A stretch of DNA of 64,000 bases from Candidatus Doudnabacteria bacterium (GTDB lineage Bacteria; Patescibacteriota; JAQUNI01): the NCBI GenBank assembly GCA_041644975.1, contig JBAZQX010000007.1, forward strand, positions 1,906 through 65,905, written 5' to 3'. Shown one piece after another: positions 10,155 to 25,743 of the stretch. The notes under the pieces are model-generated. The model was not told where the DNA came from. It was given only the letters and a program-made list of their open reading frames with translations, and ran no database searches. A program made the position numbers and the translations under genes. How positions within the stretch are numbered: position 1 is the stretch's first letter; the number at the start of each line of letters is the position of its first letter.

Positions 10155-10823
10155 TTAGATTAATTTTTCTAATCCTAATATCCAACCTTTGATTTTATTA
10201 ATTAACTCCATGTGAGACACCGAGACCCTCAATGTGCCATAAGGCAGACGATTGATAGTGCGTTTCCCTTTACTAGATGGAGTAACGCGAGAATAAGTTT
10301 TTAAAAATTGATTCTTGGGAATACGAGTTATTTTGGACCAATAATTAACCGCTCCCTCTGCGGTAACATTCGGATGAATCTGCACTGCAGCGAAAAATCT
10401 ATCTTCTCGAACATGGCAAATCTCTCGAAAAAACCTCATCATTAACTTGATCATACCGGGATCAGCATTAGAGAAATCCACGCGCCATCTTGATCGTTTA
10501 TGCCCTTCTGCCCAGTATAAAGCCACGCCTACTAAAAATAGTTCTCTTTTGGACAACTTATGAATATCTTGAGAGGCTAGATATTGTATCTTTTCCGCTC
10601 TCTCCTGCGCAAGCATGGCCCTTTTCTTATTAAATTGCGTTATATTATATGCCCATTTTCTGCGCGTTTTATGCCAAAACTTCTTTTTAATCCCAACAGG
10701 CATCTCAACATCCTTTAACCAATAAGAAAGGGTGCTCTTGGGGACTCCCAAAATTTGATTTATTTCATTATAACTCTTACCCTGTTTTCGCAACAAAGTT
10801 GCGGAATATTGCTTTGCCTTCAT
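10155..10823 (-). CDS. HTH domain-containing protein of unknown function; stop codon 4 nt from the tRNA-Gly 5' end
   Basis: N-terminal SYNEINQILGVPKSTLSYWLK helix-turn-helix. The rest is unassigned. Confidence 0.55.
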   Translation of the reverse strand: MKAKQYSATLLRKQGKSYNEINQILGVPKSTLSYWLKDVEMPVGIKKKFWHKTRRKWAYNITQFNKKRAMLAQERAEKIQYLASQDIHKLSKRELFLVGVALYWAEGHKRSRWRVDFSNADPGMIKLMMRFFREICHVREDRFFAAVQIHPNVTAEGAVNYWSKITRIPKNQFLKTYSRVTPSSKGKRTINRLPYGTLRVSVSHMELINKIKGWILGLEKLI

Positions 10824-10895
10824 TATATTGAACCAATGACAATATAACTTTATTGTATCCCATTAGTTCAATACTGTAAAAAAACATATTGACGG

Positions 10896-11231
10896 TGCCG
10901 GGGGAGAGAATCGGACTCTCGACACGATGATTTTCCATTGCTCTCTCGGATTTCTCCGAGGATTGGACTATCTCTTCTCCTCACCTAGAAATAACAAATT
11001 CTCTTTAGGTGAGGGGCTGGGCGCTTAATGCAGGATTATTATTGGGATTCACCCGCTAGTCTCTACACCTTCTCCTCTAATTAAACCCATAAAGGAGCTT
11101 GGCTCGGGATTACCATATCCCTTTGAATAAAAGGATTTAGGCTTCCCCGAATTCACCCAGTTTGCGCTTCCATATCGCTATGAAAGGGACCGAAAATTCA
11201 GTCATCTGCTCTACCACTGAGCTACCCCGGC
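10896..11231 (-). tRNA. tRNA-Phe(GAA) interrupted in the anticodon loop by a ~264-nt group I intron
   Basis: 5' exon GCCGGGGTAGCTCAGTGGTAGAGCAGATGACT; 3' exon GAAAATCATCGTGTCGAGAGTCCGATTCTCTCCCCCGGCA. Joined, they give a canonical Phe tRNA with GATGA/TCATC anticodon stem, loop CTGAAAA and A73. Confidence 0.7.
10936..11199 (-). ncRNA. Group I intron within tRNA-Phe (boundaries +/-3 nt because of GAA repeats at both junctions)
   Basis: Contains an R-like element (gtagAGACTAgcgg) and an S-like element (aagAGATAGTCCaatcc) that can pair as P7. The 5' exon ends in U and the intron ends in G. Confidence 0.6.
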
Positions 11232-11236
11232 AAGTT

Positions 11237-11365
11237 GGTAATCAGTAATTAGTAATTGGTAATTAGGGTAAACCCCGCACCGTCCGCCTTTGGCGGACTG
11301 GTGCGTGGGTAAACTCGCCCTTTGGGCGAGAAATTCCTGATTACTAGTTACTGATTACCGATTAC
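11237..11365. repeat. Family G element: inverted arms of degenerate taat-cag/tag/tgg heptamer-like repeats around a GC hairpin (ccgcaccgtccgcctttggcggactggtgcg)
   Basis: ggtaatcagtaattagtaattggtaattag ... ctgattactagttactgattaccgattactaattac. The second copy is at 60340-60442. Confidence 0.65.
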
Positions 11366-13104
11366 TAATTACTATTTCCTAACCCATTAACATAAACATA
11401 ATATCCTAAACTACCCAGGTTGTAAACCTTTAAATTGTAGTATGCCCCTCCTTTTCCCCAATCTTTCATAAACCCCCAGCCATTCCAAGAAAGAACATTT
11501 AAATTTTGGGAGATTTTACTTTCAGGATGCTCGTATGTTCCTTCCAAAGCGACCAGTTCCGATTTCTGATCCTTATTGAAATCTCCCGCCTCAATCTCTA
11601 AAAGAGGTTTGTCTAAAATTGACGAGCCCCAGATTAAATCAAGCTTTTCTTTTTTCAAATTATATAAAAACAAGTGGCTTCCCCAATGCTCTTTGTTTTC
11701 CGCATTCGCGAGGGGCGAGTTCTCCGCGTAATCCCCCTTTTTCCATAGGGCTAAAGCAAGGTCGGGTTTAGCGTCGCCGTTAAAATCGCCAACCGTATAA
11801 TCATTAACCACCCAAGCGGGATCGCTTTCCCAAATCTTTGTTTCATTTTGAAAAACTTTAACCAAGCCTTGATCCAAAATAATCTTTTCTTCTTTAGTGT
11901 CCTGATCTAAATCTTGATTAAGGAGAGAAGGAATCCCCGCAAAGACGACCCCGCTTTTCAAGCCCAAACTTGTTTCTTCTTGGTACGCTCCATTTTGAAA
12001 AGAAAAGGAAGGCTGTTCGTCTAAAGCAATGCCCAACATTTTAAGGAGCCTATTCTGTTCGCTTGGAGAAACAAACTGGGGCTGACTGTAATCAAAAATT
12101 TTGACGGGTAAAAAATTCAGCTCTACTACGCCATCGCGGTCCAGATAGATGTCCGCGACCATCCCCTCCCGCGTCTCCTCGCTCCACATCTGGTCAAAAA
12201 CAAAATTGCCTAAAGAATAGATAATATACTTGCCTTTATATTTTTCCACGGTCTGAAACCAATGCGGATGATGGCCGATCACTAAATCCGCGCCCGCGTC
12301 AATCGCTTGGCGGGCAAAAGCGATTTGCCCCGCGTTGGGAGCGCGCTTATACTCTGTGCCCGCGTGCATAGAAATAATTACCAAATCCGCTTCTTTTTTC
12401 GCCTTTCCTAAATCACTTTTTAAATCCTCTGTGTTCATTATCGCCGCGCCGGCGTTATTCTCCTTGGCTTCGGTGTTGCCAGCGTAAGTATAAGCTAAGA
12501 AGGCAATTTTAAGATTATTTCTTTCCACTATTGCCGCTTGATGCGCCGTTTCGCGATTTAATCCAGCGCCAACGCCTTGAATGCCCTCTTGCTCCAATAA
12601 TTCCAAAGTTTTTTTAAGACCTTTATCCCCTTGGTTCATAATATGGTTATTGGCTAGGGATAAAACATCAAAACCGACCTTGGTCAGCGCTCCCGCGCAT
12701 TCCGGATCCGCGCGAAAAACCATACTGGGAGTACGCACGGGCTCACCAGCAAGGAGGGGCGACTCTAAATTGCCGAAAGTGATATCGGCATTTTGCAAAA
12801 ATTGCCCCATTTTCCGGAAAGGATATTGATAATCATTATATTCCACCATCTTTTGGCCTACATTGCGCGAAAGCATCATATCGCCCACTGCCACGAGATG
12901 GACCAAAGGCTTCGCGGGAACAGGAAGACTCGGCTTTTCTAACACTGCTTCACTTTCCTCTTTGACTTCCGCGGACAGAGGCAATCTTTTTCGGCTCTCT
13001 TTAAAGTAAGTGAACGGCTCGTTAATAGGCAAAATTCTAAAAAGCGCCACCCCAATGATGACAATAAGCGGAACTATAAACCAGAATAAAATTTTGGAAA
13101 ACAT
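11365..13104 (-). CDS. CapA family protein (poly-gamma-glutamate/capsule biosynthesis metallophosphatase domain) with C-terminal repeat domain
   Basis: N-terminal TM segment. VAVGDMM...LVIGHHPHWFQ metallophosphatase motifs. C-terminal FG-GAP-like GDFNGD repeats. Confidence 0.8.
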   Translation of the reverse strand: MFSKILFWFIVPLIVIIGVALFRILPINEPFTYFKESRKRLPLSAEVKEESEAVLEKPSLPVPAKPLVHLVAVGDMMLSRNVGQKMVEYNDYQYPFRKMGQFLQNADITFGNLESPLLAGEPVRTPSMVFRADPECAGALTKVGFDVLSLANNHIMNQGDKGLKKTLELLEQEGIQGVGAGLNRETAHQAAIVERNNLKIAFLAYTYAGNTEAKENNAGAAIMNTEDLKSDLGKAKKEADLVIISMHAGTEYKRAPNAGQIAFARQAIDAGADLVIGHHPHWFQTVEKYKGKYIIYSLGNFVFDQMWSEETREGMVADIYLDRDGVVELNFLPVKIFDYSQPQFVSPSEQNRLLKMLGIALDEQPSFSFQNGAYQEETSLGLKSGVVFAGIPSLLNQDLDQDTKEEKIILDQGLVKVFQNETKIWESDPAWVVNDYTVGDFNGDAKPDLALALWKKGDYAENSPLANAENKEHWGSHLFLYNLKKEKLDLIWGSSILDKPLLEIEAGDFNKDQKSELVALEGTYEHPESKISQNLNVLSWNGWGFMKDWGKGGAYYNLKVYNLGSLGYYVYVNGLGNSN

Positions 13105-17735: not shown

Positions 17736-18263
17736 ATGTTTATCCATCTTCTGGCTGGCAGTTTGGTATTTTTGTTTCTCGGAAAAGTTCTTGGGCTTGA
17801 GATTACCAGAACGTATCTGGTAGTCGGAGCTTTTTGGGGTATTGTTCCTGACCCAATCAGCTACATTCTGTCATGGGCGGTGAAATTTAACAAATGGGCT
17901 CATACGCACAGGGATAATTTTTCCCACTCGGTTTTTATGCCTATCATTGTGTTGGCACTTGCAATTCTTTTTGATTCCAAAATGGCAATCGTTGCGAGCA
18001 TAGCCATACTAATACATCCATTTCTTGATCTCTTCGGAATTGGATGGGGCGTCAAACTGTTCTATCCGCTTAGTAAAAAGACTTTCAAAATGTTTTACAA
18101 AAGGCGGATTCTAACAGTTTGGAATCAAAAAGAAGTCGATACCGAGGCGGAAAAATTCGGAGACAATGATTGGGTCAGGAACATATATTTTAGACCTAAT
18201 ATTGTCGGGGCGTCAGAATGGCTATCACTCGCAGGATTTTTGCTTTTGGTAGTAGCGAACTAA
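17736..18263 (+). CDS. Membrane-bound metal-dependent hydrolase-like protein (DUF457/YdjM-like)
   Basis: Multi-TM protein with HTHRDNFSHS and HPFLD His-rich motifs. Start chosen at the internal Met. Confidence 0.5.
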   Translation: MFIHLLAGSLVFLFLGKVLGLEITRTYLVVGAFWGIVPDPISYILSWAVKFNKWAHTHRDNFSHSVFMPIIVLALAILFDSKMAIVASIAILIHPFLDLFGIGWGVKLFYPLSKKTFKMFYKRRILTVWNQKEVDTEAEKFGDNDWVRNIYFRPNIVGASEWLSLAGFLLLVVAN

Positions 18264-18424
18264 ACTCAAGTCGTCAGTGGACTCAACGAGCACCACGGGC
18301 TTTTTTTGAAAAAATTAAAAAGGACCCAAATTTAAAATAAAAAAATTATAAAAAATTTCTTTCTGGCGGAGCCAGATACGCCTTGCTAGACGATATTGCG
18401 ACCTAAGAAGCAATTTCTCCTGTT

Positions 18425-18525
18425 GGTTCAATTCTCCCTGCCCACTCAAGCGCTTCGCCCGCCCGCAACGACTGCGTCTTGCGCTGTCGGGCGAGGCTTC
18501 AGGCGAGGCGGGCGGGTTGAATTGA
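18425..18525. repeat. Family B GC-rich repeat copy
   Basis: gcttcgcccgcccgcaacg...gcttcaggcgaggcgggcggg. Confidence 0.6.
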
Positions 18526-18583
18526 ACTAGATATTTCTGCAAAAAATTTTGGTTCAGGTTAGGAGACCTGAATCAACGAAAGG

Positions 18584-18931
18584 CTAAATCTTAATTTCTT
18601 CACCACAGCCTACCAATTTAGCCTCTCCATTTCTGACAAGAATTGCCTGTTCATCTGTAAGTATTTTAACCGGATACTTTGAAGTTGAAATTTTCCGCTT
18701 AAGAACTGGGGCATATTCTGGCTTAAAATGTACTGACAGCAGAAAGGGCACTAAGTTTAAAGCTCTCAAATCGGTTAATCCGAATGTATTTCTATCTGGA
18801 TGTTTCCAATACGCCATTTCTATGGTGGGGCAAGCGATACAACTTCCCGCGCTGGCGCCAATATAAATAACACCTTTTAAAATAAGCTCCTTCACAACCT
18901 TATCAAAGCCGCTCTCTCTAACGCATTTCAA
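18584..18931 (-). pseudogene. Peptidase E (S51 dipeptidase) C-terminal portion, separated from its N-terminal part by a palindromic element insertion
   Basis: In the upstream frame, DIIYVQGGNTFYLLK...VIYIGASAGSCIACPT matches PepE IVGGGNTFQLLK...GWSAGANLACPT. Confidence 0.6.
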
Positions 18932-18987
18932 TAAATAAAAAGTATTTCCGCCTTGGACATAAATAATATCCTTATCGCCAAGCAGCC

Positions 18988-19022
18988 TCCTTAAGGATGT
19001 CGTTCGCGAACGACATCCTTAA
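18988..19022. repeat. 35-bp perfect palindrome TCCTTAAGGATGTCGTTCGCGAACGACATCCTTAA (family E), copy 1, inside the peptidase E gene
   Basis: Exact palindrome; identical copy at 19195-19229. Confidence 0.85.
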
Positions 19023-19194
19023 TTCATCCTCGTTCTTGCCCTCAATATCAATTTCTTGCACATGGAATCCAACATCAGCCATTATTTGGCTGTCTTTTTT
19101 AACATAAGAAATGTCATCCTCGGCTTTTGAAGCAGTAGTAATATGGGCGAGTTTTATTTGATTAGCTGGTCTAGGGAGAAGTTTCAAAATTTCT

Positions 19195-19229
19195 TCCTTA
19201 AGGATGTCGTTCGCGAACGACATCCTTAA
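19195..19229. repeat. 35-bp perfect palindrome (family E), copy 2, read through in frame
   Basis: Identical to copy 1. Confidence 0.85.
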
Positions 19230-19381
19230 CATTTTCATACCAGCAGAGGTTAACAGTAGTGTTTTCATAATCTAATGCGAAACTATTTTTCAAAATATTA
19301 ATTGGCTTGCATTGAGGCTCCACAGGGCTATCGCCACTATGGAGCCAACAAATTTAGCTAAGTATGAAGCTGGTGCGCCGG

Positions 19382-20803
19382 CTAATACTTTGTATTTACA
19401 TAATATCCATGTCTACCTCCGCACCTATAGCCATTTTTATCTTTGTGTTCTCGAATACTACTATCGTGTTTAGTCTTGGTAAATTTTCTTCCACAATAAC
19501 TACATTGATAAATATATTTTGGCCCAAACGACGAAGCTCGCGAAATTCGACTAGACGATCTCATTATACCAGAATTTCTTCGGGAACGTGGGGCGGGTGT
19601 TGGTCTATTCGGGTCAAAAAGATAAGGATTCTCAGGTGTTTCTCCTGCTTTTGATAATTCTATCGGATATTGTGGTGCAAATTTTTCTTCTGTATTTTCT
19701 ATAGATTCAATTCTTTCCGCAATAAAACATCTAACGCCGGGCTTATTTTCTCCACCGCTTCGGTTATAAACATAAAAATATTCTCGCTCTACTCCGTCTT
19801 TGCGTTGAAGATATTTCAAGGAATATGGCTCAACTATTCTATCTGCCCCTTTGTAACGAATTTTTAAGAGCGTCTGTTTTCTGCCAGCTTCCATAATAGG
19901 CACTCTCAGTTCTGGACCAAAATATGCAAACTGCATAAATCCATTATCAGGATAAATTCCAAATAAACTTTCAATATCAGAAAGAAAAATAGTTATAGCT
20001 TCATCTACTCCAAATATAAACTCTTTAGCGCAAACAACTGTCTTATCCCAATATTTTTTAAAATAATCGAATGGTGTCTTGTGTAAAATATTTTTTAGTA
20101 CATGGGGATTTCTCCCGAAAATTGTCTTTTGTACAAAAGCTTTAACGACTTCCTCTTTGTTTAGCTCTCCACCTAAAAGCTTAACGGAATAGACATAATC
20201 AAATAAATCGGGCGGGTGTTGTCGCTGTAAAAGGCATTTGAGTTTTGTGGCGATAATTTCTTCAAGTTTCATACATCGTATTTCGCACGCTACTTCATTA
20301 GCGTCCGAATACGGATGAATTAACCTAACTGTTTGTAACGGTAATAGGACTTTATCAAAACGGGTGATGTCCATTGAAATTCTGATTTTTATATAATCAG
20401 ATCTTCCATAAAAGTCTTTGAAATAAATTCGAGCTTCATAAACACGCAAGTCAGGTATCGGGGCTTCAGAAGCTAAAAATTTTTCTTCAATTTTATTATC
20501 GTCTTTTACAAAAGACACACCCGCTTTTTCTTGAATAAAATCACAAACTTTGTTGATTTCATCAAGTAAAACATTTTTTTCTATATCATTGGGAATACCA
20601 AAGTCTAAGTCAGATGAGAAGCGAGTATTTTTGAAATACCCCTTACGTAACGCATTCCCGCCTTTCAAAAAAATGGTTTCCTTGAGGTTGCTTGTTGTAA
20701 AAATTCCAAAAATTAGCCAACCAAAAACATAATCACGCTCGACATTGGCTTCGTGGATTTCAAATTCTTTTGCTTTTGATTCAATTTCATCTTTTTGAAT
20801 CAT
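19382..20803 (-). CDS. AbiEii/AbiGii-type nucleotidyltransferase (DUF1814-like) fused to a WYL-like domain and a C-terminal Cys/His zinc-finger-like tail
   Basis: N-terminal FLKGGNALRKGY...SSDLDF nucleotidyltransferase motifs. LLKIRYKGADRIVEPYSLKY...EYFYVYNRSG...GVRCFIAERIES has a WYL-like pattern. The tail is YQCSYCGRKFTKTKHDSSIREH. The start overlaps the upstream gene's stop (ATGA). Confidence 0.7.
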   Translation of the reverse strand: MIQKDEIESKAKEFEIHEANVERDYVFGWLIFGIFTTSNLKETIFLKGGNALRKGYFKNTRFSSDLDFGIPNDIEKNVLLDEINKVCDFIQEKAGVSFVKDDNKIEEKFLASEAPIPDLRVYEARIYFKDFYGRSDYIKIRISMDITRFDKVLLPLQTVRLIHPYSDANEVACEIRCMKLEEIIATKLKCLLQRQHPPDLFDYVYSVKLLGGELNKEEVVKAFVQKTIFGRNPHVLKNILHKTPFDYFKKYWDKTVVCAKEFIFGVDEAITIFLSDIESLFGIYPDNGFMQFAYFGPELRVPIMEAGRKQTLLKIRYKGADRIVEPYSLKYLQRKDGVEREYFYVYNRSGGENKPGVRCFIAERIESIENTEEKFAPQYPIELSKAGETPENPYLFDPNRPTPAPRSRRNSGIMRSSSRISRASSFGPKYIYQCSYCGRKFTKTKHDSSIREHKDKNGYRCGGRHGYYVNTKY

Positions 20804-22200
20804 TGACTTTGCTGATTAGCTTCATTGGCTTTGGCTATGGCCTGTATGTAATATAAAAGACGTAAGTTATACAACTCGGCTGCTTTTTCATTGATTTCAC
20901 CCCAATTATCAAATAAATCACCGACTGGCCTTTGGTCTTTTCCTGGATTATCTTCAAATTTTTTCGAATAATCAATTCTAATCTTTAAGGCTGGATGAGA
21001 ATCATAAACGTTGTGTATTTGACTCCTTGAAAGAATATTATTTTGAAATTCTTCAATATCTTTTTTATTTAAACTCTTGAAAACGACCTCCATGAATTTC
21101 GAAAAATTTGAAATAGTTTTTTCTTCTTTCAATAATCCTGGTACATATTTTGACTGAATTATTTCACTAAATATTGTATCGTTCATAGCAATTTTTAATA
21201 ATCCATTTCCGAATGCTTTACCGCCATACATTTGCATCGCCATTATATCAGCCATAACTTCTCTAATTCTTGAAAAACCATTTGTTATTTTAAAATATAG
21301 CTTTACGTACAAAAGTAAAAGCCAATAGGCAGGATTAAGCATCATCATAAAGCGAACCAAGCCGCCCTTTTCTTTTTCATCTTGTGATGGACCGGGCATA
21401 GAATGCAAAGTATTTATTAAGGAATTGCCCATCAAATATGTATAAGAACTCCACGAGGTATCACGGTTACTAAAATGTCCATATTCATGGGCAAGTATCG
21501 CTCTAAATTCATCAACTGTTAAATCATATAAAGAAGATAAGCCGATTTCTAAAACCCTTTCACCACCACCGAAAATTGTTGAAAACAAATTACCCTGCAA
21601 ATAAACACCTATTCCAGGGTCAGGAGTAATGATTATTTTATCAATCGGCTTTGCCTTAATTTCTTTGGCAATTTCTTTTGTTAAATTCCAAAGCTCTTTC
21701 TGTTCATTTTCGATAATAGTAATCCCGGAGGTTTTTCGTTTGGGTGGAAAAAATAAATAATAAAAACCGATTAAAATAGCGATACCCGTTCCAATTGCTA
21801 CAACGGCAAGACCAATTAAAATCCCTATGGGTACACGCTCCAAATTAGAAATAAGCATCAAACCATAAAGCGCGAAATCAATTGCGGCAAAAAGTGCTAA
21901 AACTAAAAGATAAAAAAGAAAAGGAAGTAAAGTGATTAGCAAAAGACCAAAGGTTCGAAGTAGCCCTTTGTCGTCAAATAACTCTTTCTTTTTCCCGTCC
22001 AGAAAATTTTGTACAGAATTATTAAATTTTTTATCTAAAGAGCCACCGACCGCTCTGACAATAAGATAAATAATTAAGGCAACAACAATATAGAGTAAAA
22101 GGTCTTGATAATTAAAAGATATGGAGGTGAAATTAGAAAGTATCAAAAATCCAAATACAATGGTTAGAAATAGTGAAAATAATAAGGCGATGGTTTTCAT
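20800..22200 (-). CDS. Membrane-anchored M48 family zinc metalloprotease (HExxH)
   Basis: Four to five N-terminal TM helices and the AHEYGHF zinc-binding motif. Translationally coupled to the downstream nucleotidyltransferase gene. Confidence 0.8.
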   Translation of the reverse strand: MKTIALLFSLFLTIVFGFLILSNFTSISFNYQDLLLYIVVALIIYLIVRAVGGSLDKKFNNSVQNFLDGKKKELFDDKGLLRTFGLLLITLLPFLFYLLVLALFAAIDFALYGLMLISNLERVPIGILIGLAVVAIGTGIAILIGFYYLFFPPKRKTSGITIIENEQKELWNLTKEIAKEIKAKPIDKIIITPDPGIGVYLQGNLFSTIFGGGERVLEIGLSSLYDLTVDEFRAILAHEYGHFSNRDTSWSSYTYLMGNSLINTLHSMPGPSQDEKEKGGLVRFMMMLNPAYWLLLLYVKLYFKITNGFSRIREVMADIMAMQMYGGKAFGNGLLKIAMNDTIFSEIIQSKYVPGLLKEEKTISNFSKFMEVVFKSLNKKDIEEFQNNILSRSQIHNVYDSHPALKIRIDYSKKFEDNPGKDQRPVGDLFDNWGEINEKAAELYNLRLLYYIQAIAKANEANQQSQ

Positions 22201-22810: not shown

Positions 22811-22882
22811 TCTAACGGGGTGGACCGAGTGGGAATTGAACCCACGACCTCCTCATTGCAAATGAGGCGTTCTACCACTGAA
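22811..22882 (-). tRNA. tRNA-Ala(TGC)
   Basis: GGGCCGG acceptor with the G3:U70 identity pair, anticodon loop TTTGCAA and T-arm GTGGGTTCAATTCCCAC. Confidence 0.85.
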
Positions 22883-22916
22883 CTACCGGCCCTTGGGATT
22901 TATTCTTGATAATTTT

Positions 22917-23477: not shown

Positions 23478-23945
23478 GTGGATCCACCAAAAGGCGGAAC
23501 TTCGGGTATTACCGGCTCTTCTGACGTGACGGGCGATTATCTTCTTATAAACGTAAGAATTGATGTTCCCACCCAGCGAGCGGATTTCCCGCACTAGGCG
23601 AGTTCTAATGCATTTTCTTCTTCATTAGAATGGCTCCTTTCCCCATACTCGGGGTATTATGAGCCAGCTGACTTCTGACGCTGCGTTAGTTTTATTATAT
23701 AACTCGATTGAGTTAAACCGCAACATCAGATCTCCCGGGGTCAGTTTAAAAACTTTTCCTAACATCCCAAAGAAGCTTTTATATAATTTTCCCTATGCTC
23801 ACCACCCTACCATAGGTCAATTAACTTCTTTAATTTTTGGGCTGCTATTTGTTTCCGGATCCTCTGCTAACATCCTCGCGGATGTTAACTATCCTTCAAC
23901 TACGCTCTAAACGAGATTAGAGGGACGGATTTTAACCGTCTGGTT
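23478..23945 (-). other. ~430-470-nt insertion in the 16S rRNA between the GTAC(A)C 1395 block and the CGCCCGTCA 1400 block
   Basis: The conserved blocks are ~490 nt apart here versus fewer than 100 in canonical 16S. No sense-strand ORF of 60 aa or more. Confidence 0.6.
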
Positions 23946-24443
23946 TTTAAACCTGCCCGGCGCAGATTTTGTGAGTACAAGACCTGGGAACGTATTCACC
24001 GCGACATGGCTGATTCGCGGTTACTAGCGATTCCGGCTTCATGAGGTCGAGTTGCAGACCTCAATCCGAACTGGGGGTGCTTTTGATGGGATTAGCTATA
24101 GCGTTACCGCGTCGCGTCCCATTGTTACACCCATTGTAGCACGTGTGTCGCCCAGGGCATCAAAGGCCATGCTGACTTGACGTCGTCCCCACCTTCCTCC
24201 GACTATCTGCCGGCAGTCTCGCGTGACATAGTAACACGCGACAGGGGTTGCGTTCATTCCCGGACTTAACCGAACATCTCACGACATGAACTGACGACAG
24301 CCATGCAGCACCTGATCCCAAGGTTCCCCCCATAAAAAATCCAATTTTTAATTTTAAATTTTTAATTGAATTCCTTATGGGGGCACATCTCAGTTTCCTA
24401 AGATCTCCTTGAGCGTCTTGCCCTGGTAAGGTTCCTCGCTTAC

Positions 24444-24477
<34 letters not shown>

Positions 24478-24489
24478 AGGTCCCCGTCT

Positions 24490-24521
<32 letters not shown>

Positions 24522-24954
24522 TCCCAGGCGGGGCACTTAACGCGTTAGCTTACGACACTGAAGGGGTCGAGCCTCCAATGCCTAGTGCCCATCGTTTACA
24601 GCGTGGACTACTGGGATATCTAACCCCATTCGCTCCCCACGCTTTCGTCCTATGAGCGTCAGAATCGTTCTAGTAAGCTGCCTTCGCTATTGGTGTTCCT
24701 GCCGATATTAACGCATATCACTACTACACCGGCAGTTCCGCTTACTTCTCCCGACCTCTAGTCTTGAAAGTATCCAACCCTTTCCCTTGGTTAAGCCAAG
24801 GTCTTTAAGGTTAGACTTTTCAGACCGCCTAGGGACGCTTTACGCCCAATAAATCCGGATAACGCTTGGACCACTCGAATTACCGCGACTGCTGGCACGA
24901 GTTTAGTCGGTCCTTATTCGTAGGGTACCTTCAAACGTGCCTCGCTACCGCTCG

Positions 24955-25200
24955 GCACTAAATATAAATTTACAATTTTTAATTTTAAATTTTAATTCAA
25001 ATCCAAATTTTAAAATTGATTAAAAATTTCCGCCTGAAGAGCGGATCGGCTCTTCGACTCTGAAGACTCATTAGAGTTCGTTCAGAGCCTGAACAACCTA
25101 AACGACCTAGGGCTGAAAAAATTTAGAATTAAAAATTTACAGAGTGCTGAACGTAAGTGAAGCACGTCTTATTCCCCTATAAAAGCAGTTTACACTGAAG
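24955..25200 (-). other. ~240-nt AT-rich insertion in the 16S rRNA between the 357 and 515 conserved blocks (V3 region)
   Basis: Spacing of ~400 nt versus ~160 nt in canonical 16S. Confidence 0.5.
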
Positions 25201-25743
25201 AACAGCTTCTTCCTGCACGCGGCGTCGCTCCTTCACCCTTTTGGGGCATTGAGGAAGATTCTCGACTGCAGCCTCCCGTAGGAGTCAGGGCAGTGTTTCA
25301 GTCCCCGTGTGCGAGGGCATCCTCTTAGACCTCGTAACCGTCATAGCCTTGGTGAGCCTTTACCCCACCAACTAGCTGATAGTCCGCAGGCCCTTCTTGA
25401 AGCGATAAATCATTTACCATAACTAATGAATAGCTATGGCACATCGGGAATTAGTCCGCCTTTCGGCGAATTATGCCCGTCTTCAAGGTAGGTTACCAAC
25501 GTGTTACTCACCCGTTTGCCACTGTCCGCCTAACTTTTCTTGCGAAAAGTTTGGCGGACCGTTGACTTGCATGCCTTATCCACGCCGCCAGCGTTCATCC
25601 TGAGCTAGGATCAAACTCTCAAAAAAGATAATCAGCAATTAGCTCATAAAAGCTAGATTACTAATTATATAAATAGACGTTCCTATCACTATTTAATTGT
25701 CAAAGTTCAAAAATATTTTTGCTCTTAAACTAGAGCATAATTT

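Follow-up and report, generated by a model that had tools for sequence, protein, structure and literature searches.

Introduction

The Rickettsia palindromic element RPE-1 is a repeat of about 100-150 bp, and it belongs to a loose company of short palindromic sequences that are found where a gene ought to run uninterrupted. In the present work we describe such a case in a stretch of 64,000 nucleotides from a Candidatus Doudnabacteria bacterium (contig JBAZQX010000007.1, positions 1,906 to 65,905; hereafter the window), a member of the Candidate Phyla Radiation (CPR), where a 28-bp palindromic element has entered a gene for an S51/PepE-type peptidase, pepE, twice. As cited in PMC3733652, RPE-1 elements occur as in-frame inserts within open reading frames (ORFs). 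The same paper describes a superfamily of CGTC-tagged repetitive extragenic palindromes (REPs), which includes the dRS3 repeats of Neisseria and RPE-4 and RPE-6 of Rickettsia, and in whose members one end alone bears an unpaired tag while a CCA tail marks the opposite end (Di Nocera et al. 2013, PMC3733652). REPs and REPINs are also known to be mobilised by RayT, a group of HUH tyrosine transposases, and the insertion sequences (IS) of the IS200/IS605 type move by 'peel and paste' (PMC3116915, PMC6006769). In the byp elements of Magnusiomyces mitochondria, and in the coding gap of T4 gene 60, the ribosome skips the insert (PMC5009743).

We know of no mobile DNA comparably small to the element described here other than the repeats SDR4-6 of Nostoc, which Elhai et al. 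2008 (Genome Res 18:1484) reportedly described as mobile repeats of 21-27 nt. For the Nostoc SDRs (Elhai et al. 2008) we rely on what is cited in PMC3116915 and PMC5861425. Our literature search returned the sequence of the new element's core in no paper, and it returned no account of such repeats in CPR.

Results

The host gene lies on the reverse strand at 18584-19268 and is interrupted; Pfam and homologues identify it as encoding an S51/PepE-type (type 1 glutamine amidotransferase-like) peptidase. Within it the 35-mer TCCTTAAGGATGTCGTTCGCGAACGACATCCTTAA occurs exactly twice, at 18988-19022 and 19195-19229 on the forward strand, 207 bp from start to start, just as the first-pass annotation of the window had reported; it had no match in 100 shuffles of the sequence (0/100), and a repeat finder gives the same pair. 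That annotation had called the 35-mer a perfect palindrome, which needs trimming: the perfect palindrome is the 32-mer TTAAGGATGTCGTTCGCGAACGACATCCTTAA at 18991-19022 and 19198-19229, to which the 35-mer adds TCC on one side, and in the wider family the palindrome measures 26 bp. The inserted unit is 28 bp long and consists of a 20-bp perfect-palindrome core, ATGTCGTTCGCGAACGACAT, found in only these two copies within the window, and a further 8 bp in which the target TTAAGG is repeated or inverted. The first two or three of the 8 bases after the core are the reverse complement of the last two or three bases of the target, and the remaining five or six repeat the target itself. An equivalent description of the unit is a 24-26-bp palindrome with a 2-4-bp target duplication on its flanks, and the sites in the window can be written TTAA/GG-core-CC/TTAA. 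As RNA, the element is predicted to form a hairpin with a 14-bp stem (minimum free energy -26.2 kcal/mol, z -3.6).

The two palindromes are insertions, as had been proposed, and orthologs show nothing at either site. The DNA was compared with the three closest relatives (L021, L064 and L065), of which L021 could be aligned over the whole gene at about 95% identity. All three are empty at the first site, reading GGTATGAATGTTAAGGAAGAA, i.e. GG(T/C)ATGAATGTTAAGGAAGAA, where the window has GGTATGAA-AA-TGTTAAGG-ATGTCGTTCGCGAACGACAT-CC-TTAAGG-AAGAA. The second site is empty in L021 and L064, which read GAATTAAGGAGGCTG, where the window has GAATTAAGG-core-CC-TTAAGG-AGGCTG. Relative to L021 and L064, copy 2 amounts to exactly 28 extra bp, while copy 1 amounts to 28 bp plus an AA in a run 8 nt upstream, making 30 bp or ten codons, and the flanks agree with the orthologs at every base on either side, so that the surplus is exactly 28 and 30 bases. 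In the protein alignment none of 14 orthologs (0/14) has extra residues at either site, where they read GM(N/D)-VKEEILK and NENELR.LL.DKD (NENELRRLLGDKD), and copy 1 appears as a net 10-residue insertion. Because the sites are empty in close orthologs, both copies are recent insertions, and native sequence at both positions is ruled out by the 14 protein and three DNA orthologs.

A length of 28 bp is not divisible by three, so each insertion by itself frameshifts pepE, and the earlier picture of two in-frame copies therefore has to be revised. Copy 1 is the 28-bp insertion at 19196-19223 on the reverse strand (one of several equivalent placements), with its core at 19204-19223 followed by CC and the repeated TTAAGG; its 32-bp palindrome spans 19198-19229 and is translated within ...GMKMLRMSFANDILKEEILK.... 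It is in frame only because a separate change of +2 turns 28 into 30 bp: at 19232-19235 on the reverse strand, the DNA alignments show a run of four A where all three orthologs have two (GAAT to GAAAAT). Most simply read, this +2 is a selected compensatory mutation of the slippage type. The product of copy 1 has ten extra residues between strand beta-1 and helix alpha-1; an AlphaFold model of the reconstructed PepE, with a mean pLDDT of 65, was too poor to place the 10-residue insert. Copy 2 is the 28-bp insertion at 18989-19016 on the reverse strand, again with core (18997-19016), CC and repeated TTAAGG, its palindrome spanning 18991-19022, and it is a plain, uncompensated +1 frameshift.

The fate of the reading frames was correctly foreseen from the letters alone: translation runs on through the first copy, the frame is lost at the second, a stop follows four codons later, and PepE continues in another frame. 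The N-terminal ORF (18972-19268, reverse strand, 98 aa) reads MKTLLLTSAGMKM-LRMSFANDILKE-EILK...NEDE-LRMSFANDILKE-AAWR and ends (...LKEAAWR) at the premature stop TAA at 18972-18974 on the reverse strand, four codons past copy 2. The other frame is open from about 19018 down to 18584 and reads RRLLGDKDIIYVQGGNTF..., with ORF 18584-18931 as its tail; this segment (18584-19018, reverse strand) encodes the C-terminal two thirds of PepE, including the GGNTF and GxSAGS blocks that stand out as invariant columns in the ortholog alignment. Removing copy 2 restores ...NEDELRRLLGDKDIIYVQGGNTF. An NCBI entry of 133 aa (P0086), labelled Candidatus Doudnabacteria, matches the C-terminal piece with 99% identity and is evidently the part of pepE annotated from the same genome.

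With the 28 bp of copy 2 deleted and the frames joined, the product matches PF03575 (Peptidase_S51) over positions 2-205 of 206 (E 1.9e-35), so that the S51 profile is covered at full length once copy 2 is removed. A search of 5.8 billion proteins returned 1080 PepE homologues, typically 208 aa long and mostly carrying Patescibacteria or CPR names. Without its 30 and 28 extra bp, pepE measures 627 nt, equal to the ortholog length, and the reconstructed gene differs from its ortholog in L021 by 21 synonymous and 7 non-synonymous codons; from this balance and from the ortholog length it follows that pepE was under purifying selection until very recently. No single frame now encodes the complete protein, the break falling at copy 2 where the N-terminal ORF ends after 98 aa, and pepE is now a pseudogene, or at best split. 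The first-pass annotation had offered a choice between an inactivated gene and a protein tolerating a peptide, and each half of that choice holds for one copy: the insertion of copy 1 is a peptide tolerated by the protein, and that of copy 2 is the recent inactivation of the gene. Copy 1 would have come first and been compensated under selection, and copy 2 would have come later.

To place the element in a wider setting, the 20-mer core was scanned in one genome per species (596 Gb) and in the JGI and ENA metagenomes. These scans report exact matches to this one 20-mer, so variant copies are under-sampled, and the taxonomic labels of metagenome-assembled genomes (MAGs) are given as deposited. 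The core was found at 20 genome loci, against roughly 1 expected by chance, and at 37 further metagenome loci. Five of the 20 genome loci belong to native coding sequence of Actinobacteria or Bacteroidia, and the other 15 are not chance: four are contigs of one Kerfeldbacteria MAG, two each come from Saccharibacteria and Peribacteria, one each from Buchananbacteria, Wirthbacteria and a 'Patescibacteria group', two from unclassified 'bacterium' MAGs and two from Gammaproteobacteria-labelled MAGs. The Actinobacteria and Bacteroidia matches (L004, L013, L015, L018, L023, L039, L047, L052 and L057, among others) all fall in one conserved gene, whose own coding sequence includes ...HVMSFANDIYTEEGG..., and were discarded as chance, as were L011 and L025, which are likewise native coding sequence. 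Neither the genome nor the metagenome scans placed any core locus in a cyanobacterium. A viral origin was also considered and rejected, a degenerate pattern run over 2.9 M viral contigs yielding five matches, four of them asymmetric, that we read as chance. A scan of positions 18200-19400 against Rfam, at the gathering threshold and at E of at most 1, gave only sub-threshold chance matches to known RNA families.

Once duplicates and chance matches are set aside, 43 distinct copies remain, among them eight core variants such as ACGTCATTCGCGAATGACGT, ACGTCACTCGCGAGTGACGT and ATGTCGGTCGCGACCGACAT, as well as ACGTCGTTCTAGAACGACGT, which has a different centre. Symmetry is perfect in all 43 copies and in all eight variants, and a search that allowed five mismatches found no asymmetric or decayed member of the family. 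The palindrome also reaches beyond the core: 39 of the 43 copies (about 2.7 expected) have 2 bp or more of symmetric flank, 34 have 3 bp or more and only seven have 4 bp or more, which defines the symmetric unit as 26 bp with three variable outer pairs.

The bases next to the core follow a rule that relates them to the target. In the window and at L006, L007, L017, L029, L032, L043 and L044 the arrangement is [X1..X6]-core-[reverse complement of X5X6]-[X1..X6], with 28 inserted bases. We scored the 8 nt 3' of each core against the inverted last k bases of the left flank followed by a direct copy of its last 8-k bases: 12 of 45 copies fit at all eight positions and nine of 45 at seven, against 1.7% and 4.5% for controls with mismatched flanks, k being mostly 2-3. 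In 39 of 43 copies the last two or three bases of the target pair with those that open the tail, a pairing that at sites with perfect repeats is equally explained by duplication. Identical tails recur at unrelated loci whose left flanks differ, namely GGCTGGCC at L032 and L022, GGCTTGCC at L008 and L033, and GGCCTGCC at L017, L026 and L029. Of the 43 copies, 34 have an imperfect direct repeat and none an imperfect core, a contrast that speaks for a mismatch dating from insertion and not from later decay. The recurrent tails, and the imperfect repeats beside undrifted cores, favour an element that carries its 8-nt tail. The top strand is the gene-rich strand at 14 of 19 loci, a weak bias in a small and partly non-independent sample, and GC skew is inconsistent.

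Several of the occupied sites lie at tRNA ends or in coding genes. Four independent copies sit exactly after the CC of a tRNA 3' CCA, where the first A of the core completes the CCA; the tRNAs concerned are those for Gln, Lys, Ser-UGA and Ser-GGA. Different variants stand in tandem pairs, with cores 8-9 nt apart, at L019:3379-3432 and L055:349-403, the latter directly 3' of a tRNA-Ser gene with a third copy 280 nt upstream, and such pairs are expected if each insertion regenerates its target. In-frame copies lie in long ORFs that, from the look of their translations, encode an Mfd-like helicase (L034), a histidine kinase (L020) and a membrane protein (L037). For a further copy, in a Saccharibacteria genome (L008), the host is an Elp3 radical-SAM enzyme by database-supported assignment and is called as a 528-aa protein (P0121). 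Its coding strand reads [GGCAAG]CC-core-AT-[GGCAAG], so that 28 nt plus a duplicated AT make 30 nt, in frame, and the resulting PCRSRTTYGK is absent from the 11 nearest Elp3 orthologs. This is a second, independent case of rescue by '28 + 2'.

Two kinds of unusual relatives were seen among the loci. At L009:1071-1124, in Wirthbacteria, the core is centred in a 54-bp perfect palindrome, CCTCCCCCATCAAAGGC-core-GCCTTTGATGGGGGAGG, where the usual length is 26 bp; either the element was inserted into the loop of an existing hairpin or the palindrome grew. Shorter relatives such as CCATGTCATTCGACATGG (a 7-bp stem with an ATTC loop) and isolated half-sites occur beside full copies (L035 at about 1255 on the reverse strand, L035 at about 440-460, and L022:117-148). 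These could be remnants of internal deletion, which suggests that copies decay by losing sequence and not through substitutions.

Genes that might mobilise the element were sought in two ways. The window was searched with Pfam over 34 ORFs, made up of 31 of its 53 ORFs of at least 120 aa together with the two pepE products, and RayT was sought by local phmmer with IS200 TnpA and E. coli RayT seed sequences; the IS200 seed found a true IS200 TnpA in an unrelated locus, and the search therefore works. One copy, at L006 in a Buchananbacteria MAG, lies 0.5 kb from a gene for a RayT-like HUH protein (VVMPNHVHGII...QRYYDHIVRNE), and none was found in the window or at the loci other than L006. The intergenic DNA of L006 and its relative L066 is too diverged to define the insertion there. 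As an observation in its own right, the ORF at L006:3038-4033 (also present as L027 and L049) fuses the RayT-like HUH domain to a UPF0102/YraN (PD-(D/E)xK) nuclease, and the fusion is conserved in a 66%-identical relative at L066:1033-2001.

Other features of the window

The neighbours of pepE are an AbiEii-family protein, an M48 peptidase and a YdjM-like membrane protein. Within 19382-22200 on the reverse strand, the ORF for the AbiEii-family nucleotidyltransferase (473 aa) has a Cys/His-rich C-terminal tail and overlaps by 4 nt with the upstream ORF (466 aa), which has an M48-peptidase domain. An AbiE toxin normally follows its AbiEi antitoxin, and the pairing with M48 is unusual. Just downstream of pepE, at 18426-18527, a GC-rich, imperfect long hairpin stands in an AT-rich spacer, with arms GTTCAATTCTCCCTGCCC and GGGCGGGTTGAATTGAAC and an inner pair CCCGCCCGC and GCGGGCGGG; it has no match in Rfam and is absent downstream of pepE in L021.

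Elsewhere in the window, a group I intron (Rfam, 10944-11209, 92.9 bits) appears to lie inside the anticodon loop of a tRNA-Phe(GAA) at 10893-11231 on the reverse strand. The tRNA, which ARAGORN did not call, has the 5' half GCCGGGGTAGCTCAGTGGTAGAGCAGATGACTGAA and the 3' half ...AAAATCATCG...CCCCGGCACC. After it comes a 222-aa ORF (10155-10823) that has no Pfam match, and just upstream of it, at 11232-11370 on the reverse strand, are short TAATYAGTAA-like repeats and two small GC hairpins, CTCGCCCAAAGGGCGAG and GCACCAGTCCGCCAAAGGCGGACGGTGC (a stem with one unpaired base). The 16S rRNA gene at 23919-25626 on the reverse strand measures 1708 nt against a model of 1533 nt and carries about 175 nt of insertions; it is followed by a tRNA-Ala at 22819-22892 on the reverse strand, and there is no 23S rRNA match in the 64 kb. 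The rRNA genes appear to be unlinked, or the 23S unrecognisable.

Discussion

We read the element as a very small, non-autonomous mobile palindrome of the REP/RPE/SDR class that was inserted twice, and recently, into a working CPR pepE, and we would put the probability of this reading at roughly 0.72. It would be moved in trans by an enzyme encoded elsewhere. Our preference for how it moves is tentative, and we hold it at clearly less than even odds: a single-strand hairpin mechanism of the 'peel and paste' kind, as in REP/RayT or IS200/IS605. Under this mechanism the mobile element would be the core with its 8-nt tail carried along; it would insert 3' of a short target whose last two or three bases pair, as a guide, with the first bases of the tail, and the element's own 3' end would then repeat the target. 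The pairing of 2-3 bp between target and tail may be likened to that between guide and cleavage site in IS200/IS605 and REP-RayT, which it resembles (PMC6006769, PMC3116915). The recurrence of tails, the tandem arrays and the weak strand bias point the same way.

Several observations weigh against the reading of a mobile element moved in this manner. No transposase, recombinase or reverse transcriptase was present among the 34 window ORFs scanned with Pfam, and of about 35 independent loci only one has a RayT-like gene close by, where chance alone would give about 0.3. Homologues of the RayT-like protein of L006 lie on five other contigs, none of which carries the palindrome, and on both counts a link to RayT is no more than possible. 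The elements are perfect and symmetric, whereas imperfect pairing and a tag on one side mark the hairpins known from IS200/IS605 and REPs. Copy number is low, at two in 64 kb here and a handful per genome elsewhere, and 24 TTAAGGA sites in the window are unoccupied, both of the occupied ones lying in pepE. Three copies, L055:381 ([CTCCG]AT-core-AT[CTCCG]CC), L030 and L053:6643, are better fitted by a 24-bp element with a 4-5-bp duplication, and the same three are counter-examples to an outer dinucleotide derived from the target. Finally, the copies in the window are known from assembled sequence, where heterogeneity in the population or a consensus error of 1 nt is possible.

The two copies in pepE need not have arrived independently. 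The second could have been made by the same route as the first, or it could have been copied from it across 207 bp through the shared TTAAGGA microhomology, and since both copies lie at TTAAGGA while 24 other such sites are empty, a local origin of the second deserves weighing. It is a possibility, short of an even chance, that transposition happened once and that template switching or gene conversion over short homology then produced the other copy. The copies are identical over 35 nt, including both TTAAGGA, and share their orientation, and a second random event in the same gene has a chance of about 4%. Seven bases of homology are very short for such copying, though, and the same picture would come from target preference combined with chance or from a transposase that hops locally; double insertions of short palindromic repeats in one ORF have moreover been reported for other families (PMC3733652).

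If the duplications are taken at face value, the element could instead be a minimal miniature inverted-repeat transposable element (MITE), a unit of 24-26 bp made of two abutted terminal inverted repeats (TIRs) and moved by a DDE-type or other double-strand transposase with a staggered cut of 2-4 bp. Such an enzyme would be expected to use TTAA at pepE, as in the IS5 group or piggyBac, and both sites in the window conform, with TTAA bracketing GG-core-CC and 28 equal to 24 plus 4. The clean duplications of 4-5 bp round a 24-bp palindrome at L055:381, L030 and L053:6643, although the next bases differ, fit as well. Yet the conservation is the wrong way round for normal TIRs, the outer 2-3 bp that would be the tips being the most variable and the interior the most conserved. 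In about 12 of 22 clean cases, against an expectation of 1/16, the base pair or pairs past the duplication match the end of the element, and the match is confined to one side, which is not expected of a symmetric transpososome. For a synaptic complex a duplex of 24 bp would probably be very short. No full-length element bearing these ends turned up, and in 472 kb of loci isolated half-sites did not exceed chance; a full-length parent IS with the same ends was set aside after an unconvincing half-site search, in which the half-site at L009 proved to be native coding sequence. We consider the MITE explanation unlikely, somewhat more so than the single-strand hairpin mechanism.

Less probable still is a synthesis that snaps back on itself. 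Here the 3' end of a nicked target would be extended by about 10-13 nt on a short RNA or DNA template and would fold on the self-complementary TCGCGA, after which the end would copy itself and 2-3 nt of flank before rejoining (target-primed, then hairpin-primed). Such a process would account by construction for the perfect symmetry of all 43 copies, eight variants included, and for symmetry that runs 2-3 bp into unrelated flank. It is purely inferential, with neither a reverse transcriptase nor a candidate template seen, and the fixed total of 28 bp and the recurring 8-nt tails do not follow from it naturally, so we give it only a small share of the probability.

It is very improbable that pepE remains fully functional through a ribosome that bypasses copy 2 or shifts frame over it, in the manner of T4 gene 60 or the byp elements of Magnusiomyces. 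Matching codons for take-off and landing are present (GAA TTA [28 nt] AGG AGG), as is a strong hairpin, and mitochondrial genes with short inserts are read correctly by this means (PMC5009743). The comparison with copy 1 speaks otherwise, because there the same codons and the same hairpin were repaired by a +2 change in the DNA, and skipping copy 1 now meets a stop (ATG TTA/AGG AAG AAA TTT TGA); from these two facts it follows that the organism decodes the element linearly. The take-off site, moreover, is followed by neither a stop nor a rare codon. The weakest alternative, an artefact of adapter or linker contamination or of assembly, is less likely still, even though perfect palindromes with a central blunt-cutter site (TCG/CGA) can come from ligated linkers and MAG consensus sequences can carry indels, because the core occurs in assemblies from many unrelated projects and is nearly confined to CPR genomes, it has lineage-specific symmetric variants, target-related flanks, sites at tRNA CCA ends and in-frame sites in called proteins, and the flanks in pepE match those of the orthologs to the base around exactly 28 and 30 extra ones.

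The mobile palindrome in pepE is a concrete and datable case of selfish DNA, 28 bp in length, that moves both inside and among bacterial genomes that are the smallest known. As its length is not divisible by three, both outcomes of such a visit can be seen in a single gene, a rescue by 2 nt that leaves a 10-residue insert and the death of the gene. The identity of the 20-bp core across distant CPR phyla speaks of recent horizontal spread or of a shared enzyme, and the flank rule yields testable predictions about the enzyme that mobilises the element. Insertions of this kind also produce split or mis-called genes in the annotation of CPR MAGs, as with the 133-aa fragment that is all NCBI calls of pepE. 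A bolder proposal, which we would not yet back at even odds, is that the element represents a class of minimal mobile DNA not described before, one restricted to CPR/Patescibacteria phyla and shared horizontally among them, in which a perfect palindrome is regenerated at each event, by hairpin templating or as a single strand, and whose routine insertions in coding sequence are rescued by a characteristic +2 slippage. If true, these would be among the smallest transposing units known, and they would serve as a tracer of recent DNA exchange between CPR lineages.

Comparison with known systems

The likeness to Rickettsia palindromic elements that the first-pass annotation drew holds in part. Both are selfish palindromic repeats in coding genes, translated as extra segments, sometimes twice per ORF, in a host with a reduced genome. 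The identity does not carry over: RPE-1 is some 100-150 bp long, whereas the CPR unit of 28 bp is non-triplet and needs a second mutation to be tolerated, the hosts are Rickettsia in one case and CPR in the other, and the likeness is one of description. The CPR element is not a Rickettsia RPE.

With the CGTC REPs it shares units of 20-40 nt, a CGTC/TGTC motif (AYGTC...), an adjacent CC(A), intragenic copies and the lack of a known dedicated transposase. If the core is folded there is an 8-bp stem with a 4-nt loop, the stem starting A-T/T-A; it can be drawn as ATGTCGTT/AACGACAT with the loop CGCG, while as DNA it is a perfect palindrome without a loop, and variants start AC...GT. The CGTC REPs differ in that their tag is unpaired and at one end, where the CPR element has YGTC/GACR on both arms: AYGTC...GACRT is present on each and base-paired in all 43 copies. 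Nor is there a one-sided CCA tail, since CC lies on the 5' side, preceding the core (in the commonest subclass the core's A completes the CCA), and GG follows by symmetry.

Like REP/RayT and IS200/IS605, the element is short hairpin DNA for which movement as a single strand is proposed, with recognition of a few base pairs at the foot of the hairpin and insertion 3' of a short sequence; of the systems compared, this one agrees best with the flank rule. It differs from REP/RayT in having no GTAG tag, none adjoining the cores, and in being a perfect rather than a bulged hairpin, and whereas REPs are mainly extragenic and high in copy number, it is low-copy and often genic. The arrangement of a REPtron, a RayT gene flanked by its cognate repeats, is not seen in the window or at the loci; the RayT-like gene at L006, 0.5 kb away, is the one candidate. 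Two features of a MITE can be recognised, TIRs in the form of the 24-26-bp palindrome and a target-site duplication of 2-4 bp (TTAA in the window; CCTG, TTTA, CTGG and others elsewhere), but at 28 bp the unit falls below the MITE range of about 50-500 bp, and no half-sites bound a transposase gene in the 472 kb of loci or in the window.

The byp elements and the T4 gene 60 gap are likewise short non-triplet blocks within coding sequence; there the ribosome skips them, whereas the +2 mutation at copy 1 shows linear decoding here. Nearest in size are SDR4-6 of Nostoc, which, as far as the citing papers describe them, are also hairpin-forming, non-autonomous and inserted at specific short targets; they belong to the cyanobacterial phylum and have other sequences, and we compare them by description only. 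The element is thus a miniature palindromic mobile repeat of a known kind, and what is unusual about it is its perfect symmetry, its non-triplet length of 28 bp, a core that is identical across CPR phyla, its low copy number and the recurrent rescue by +2.

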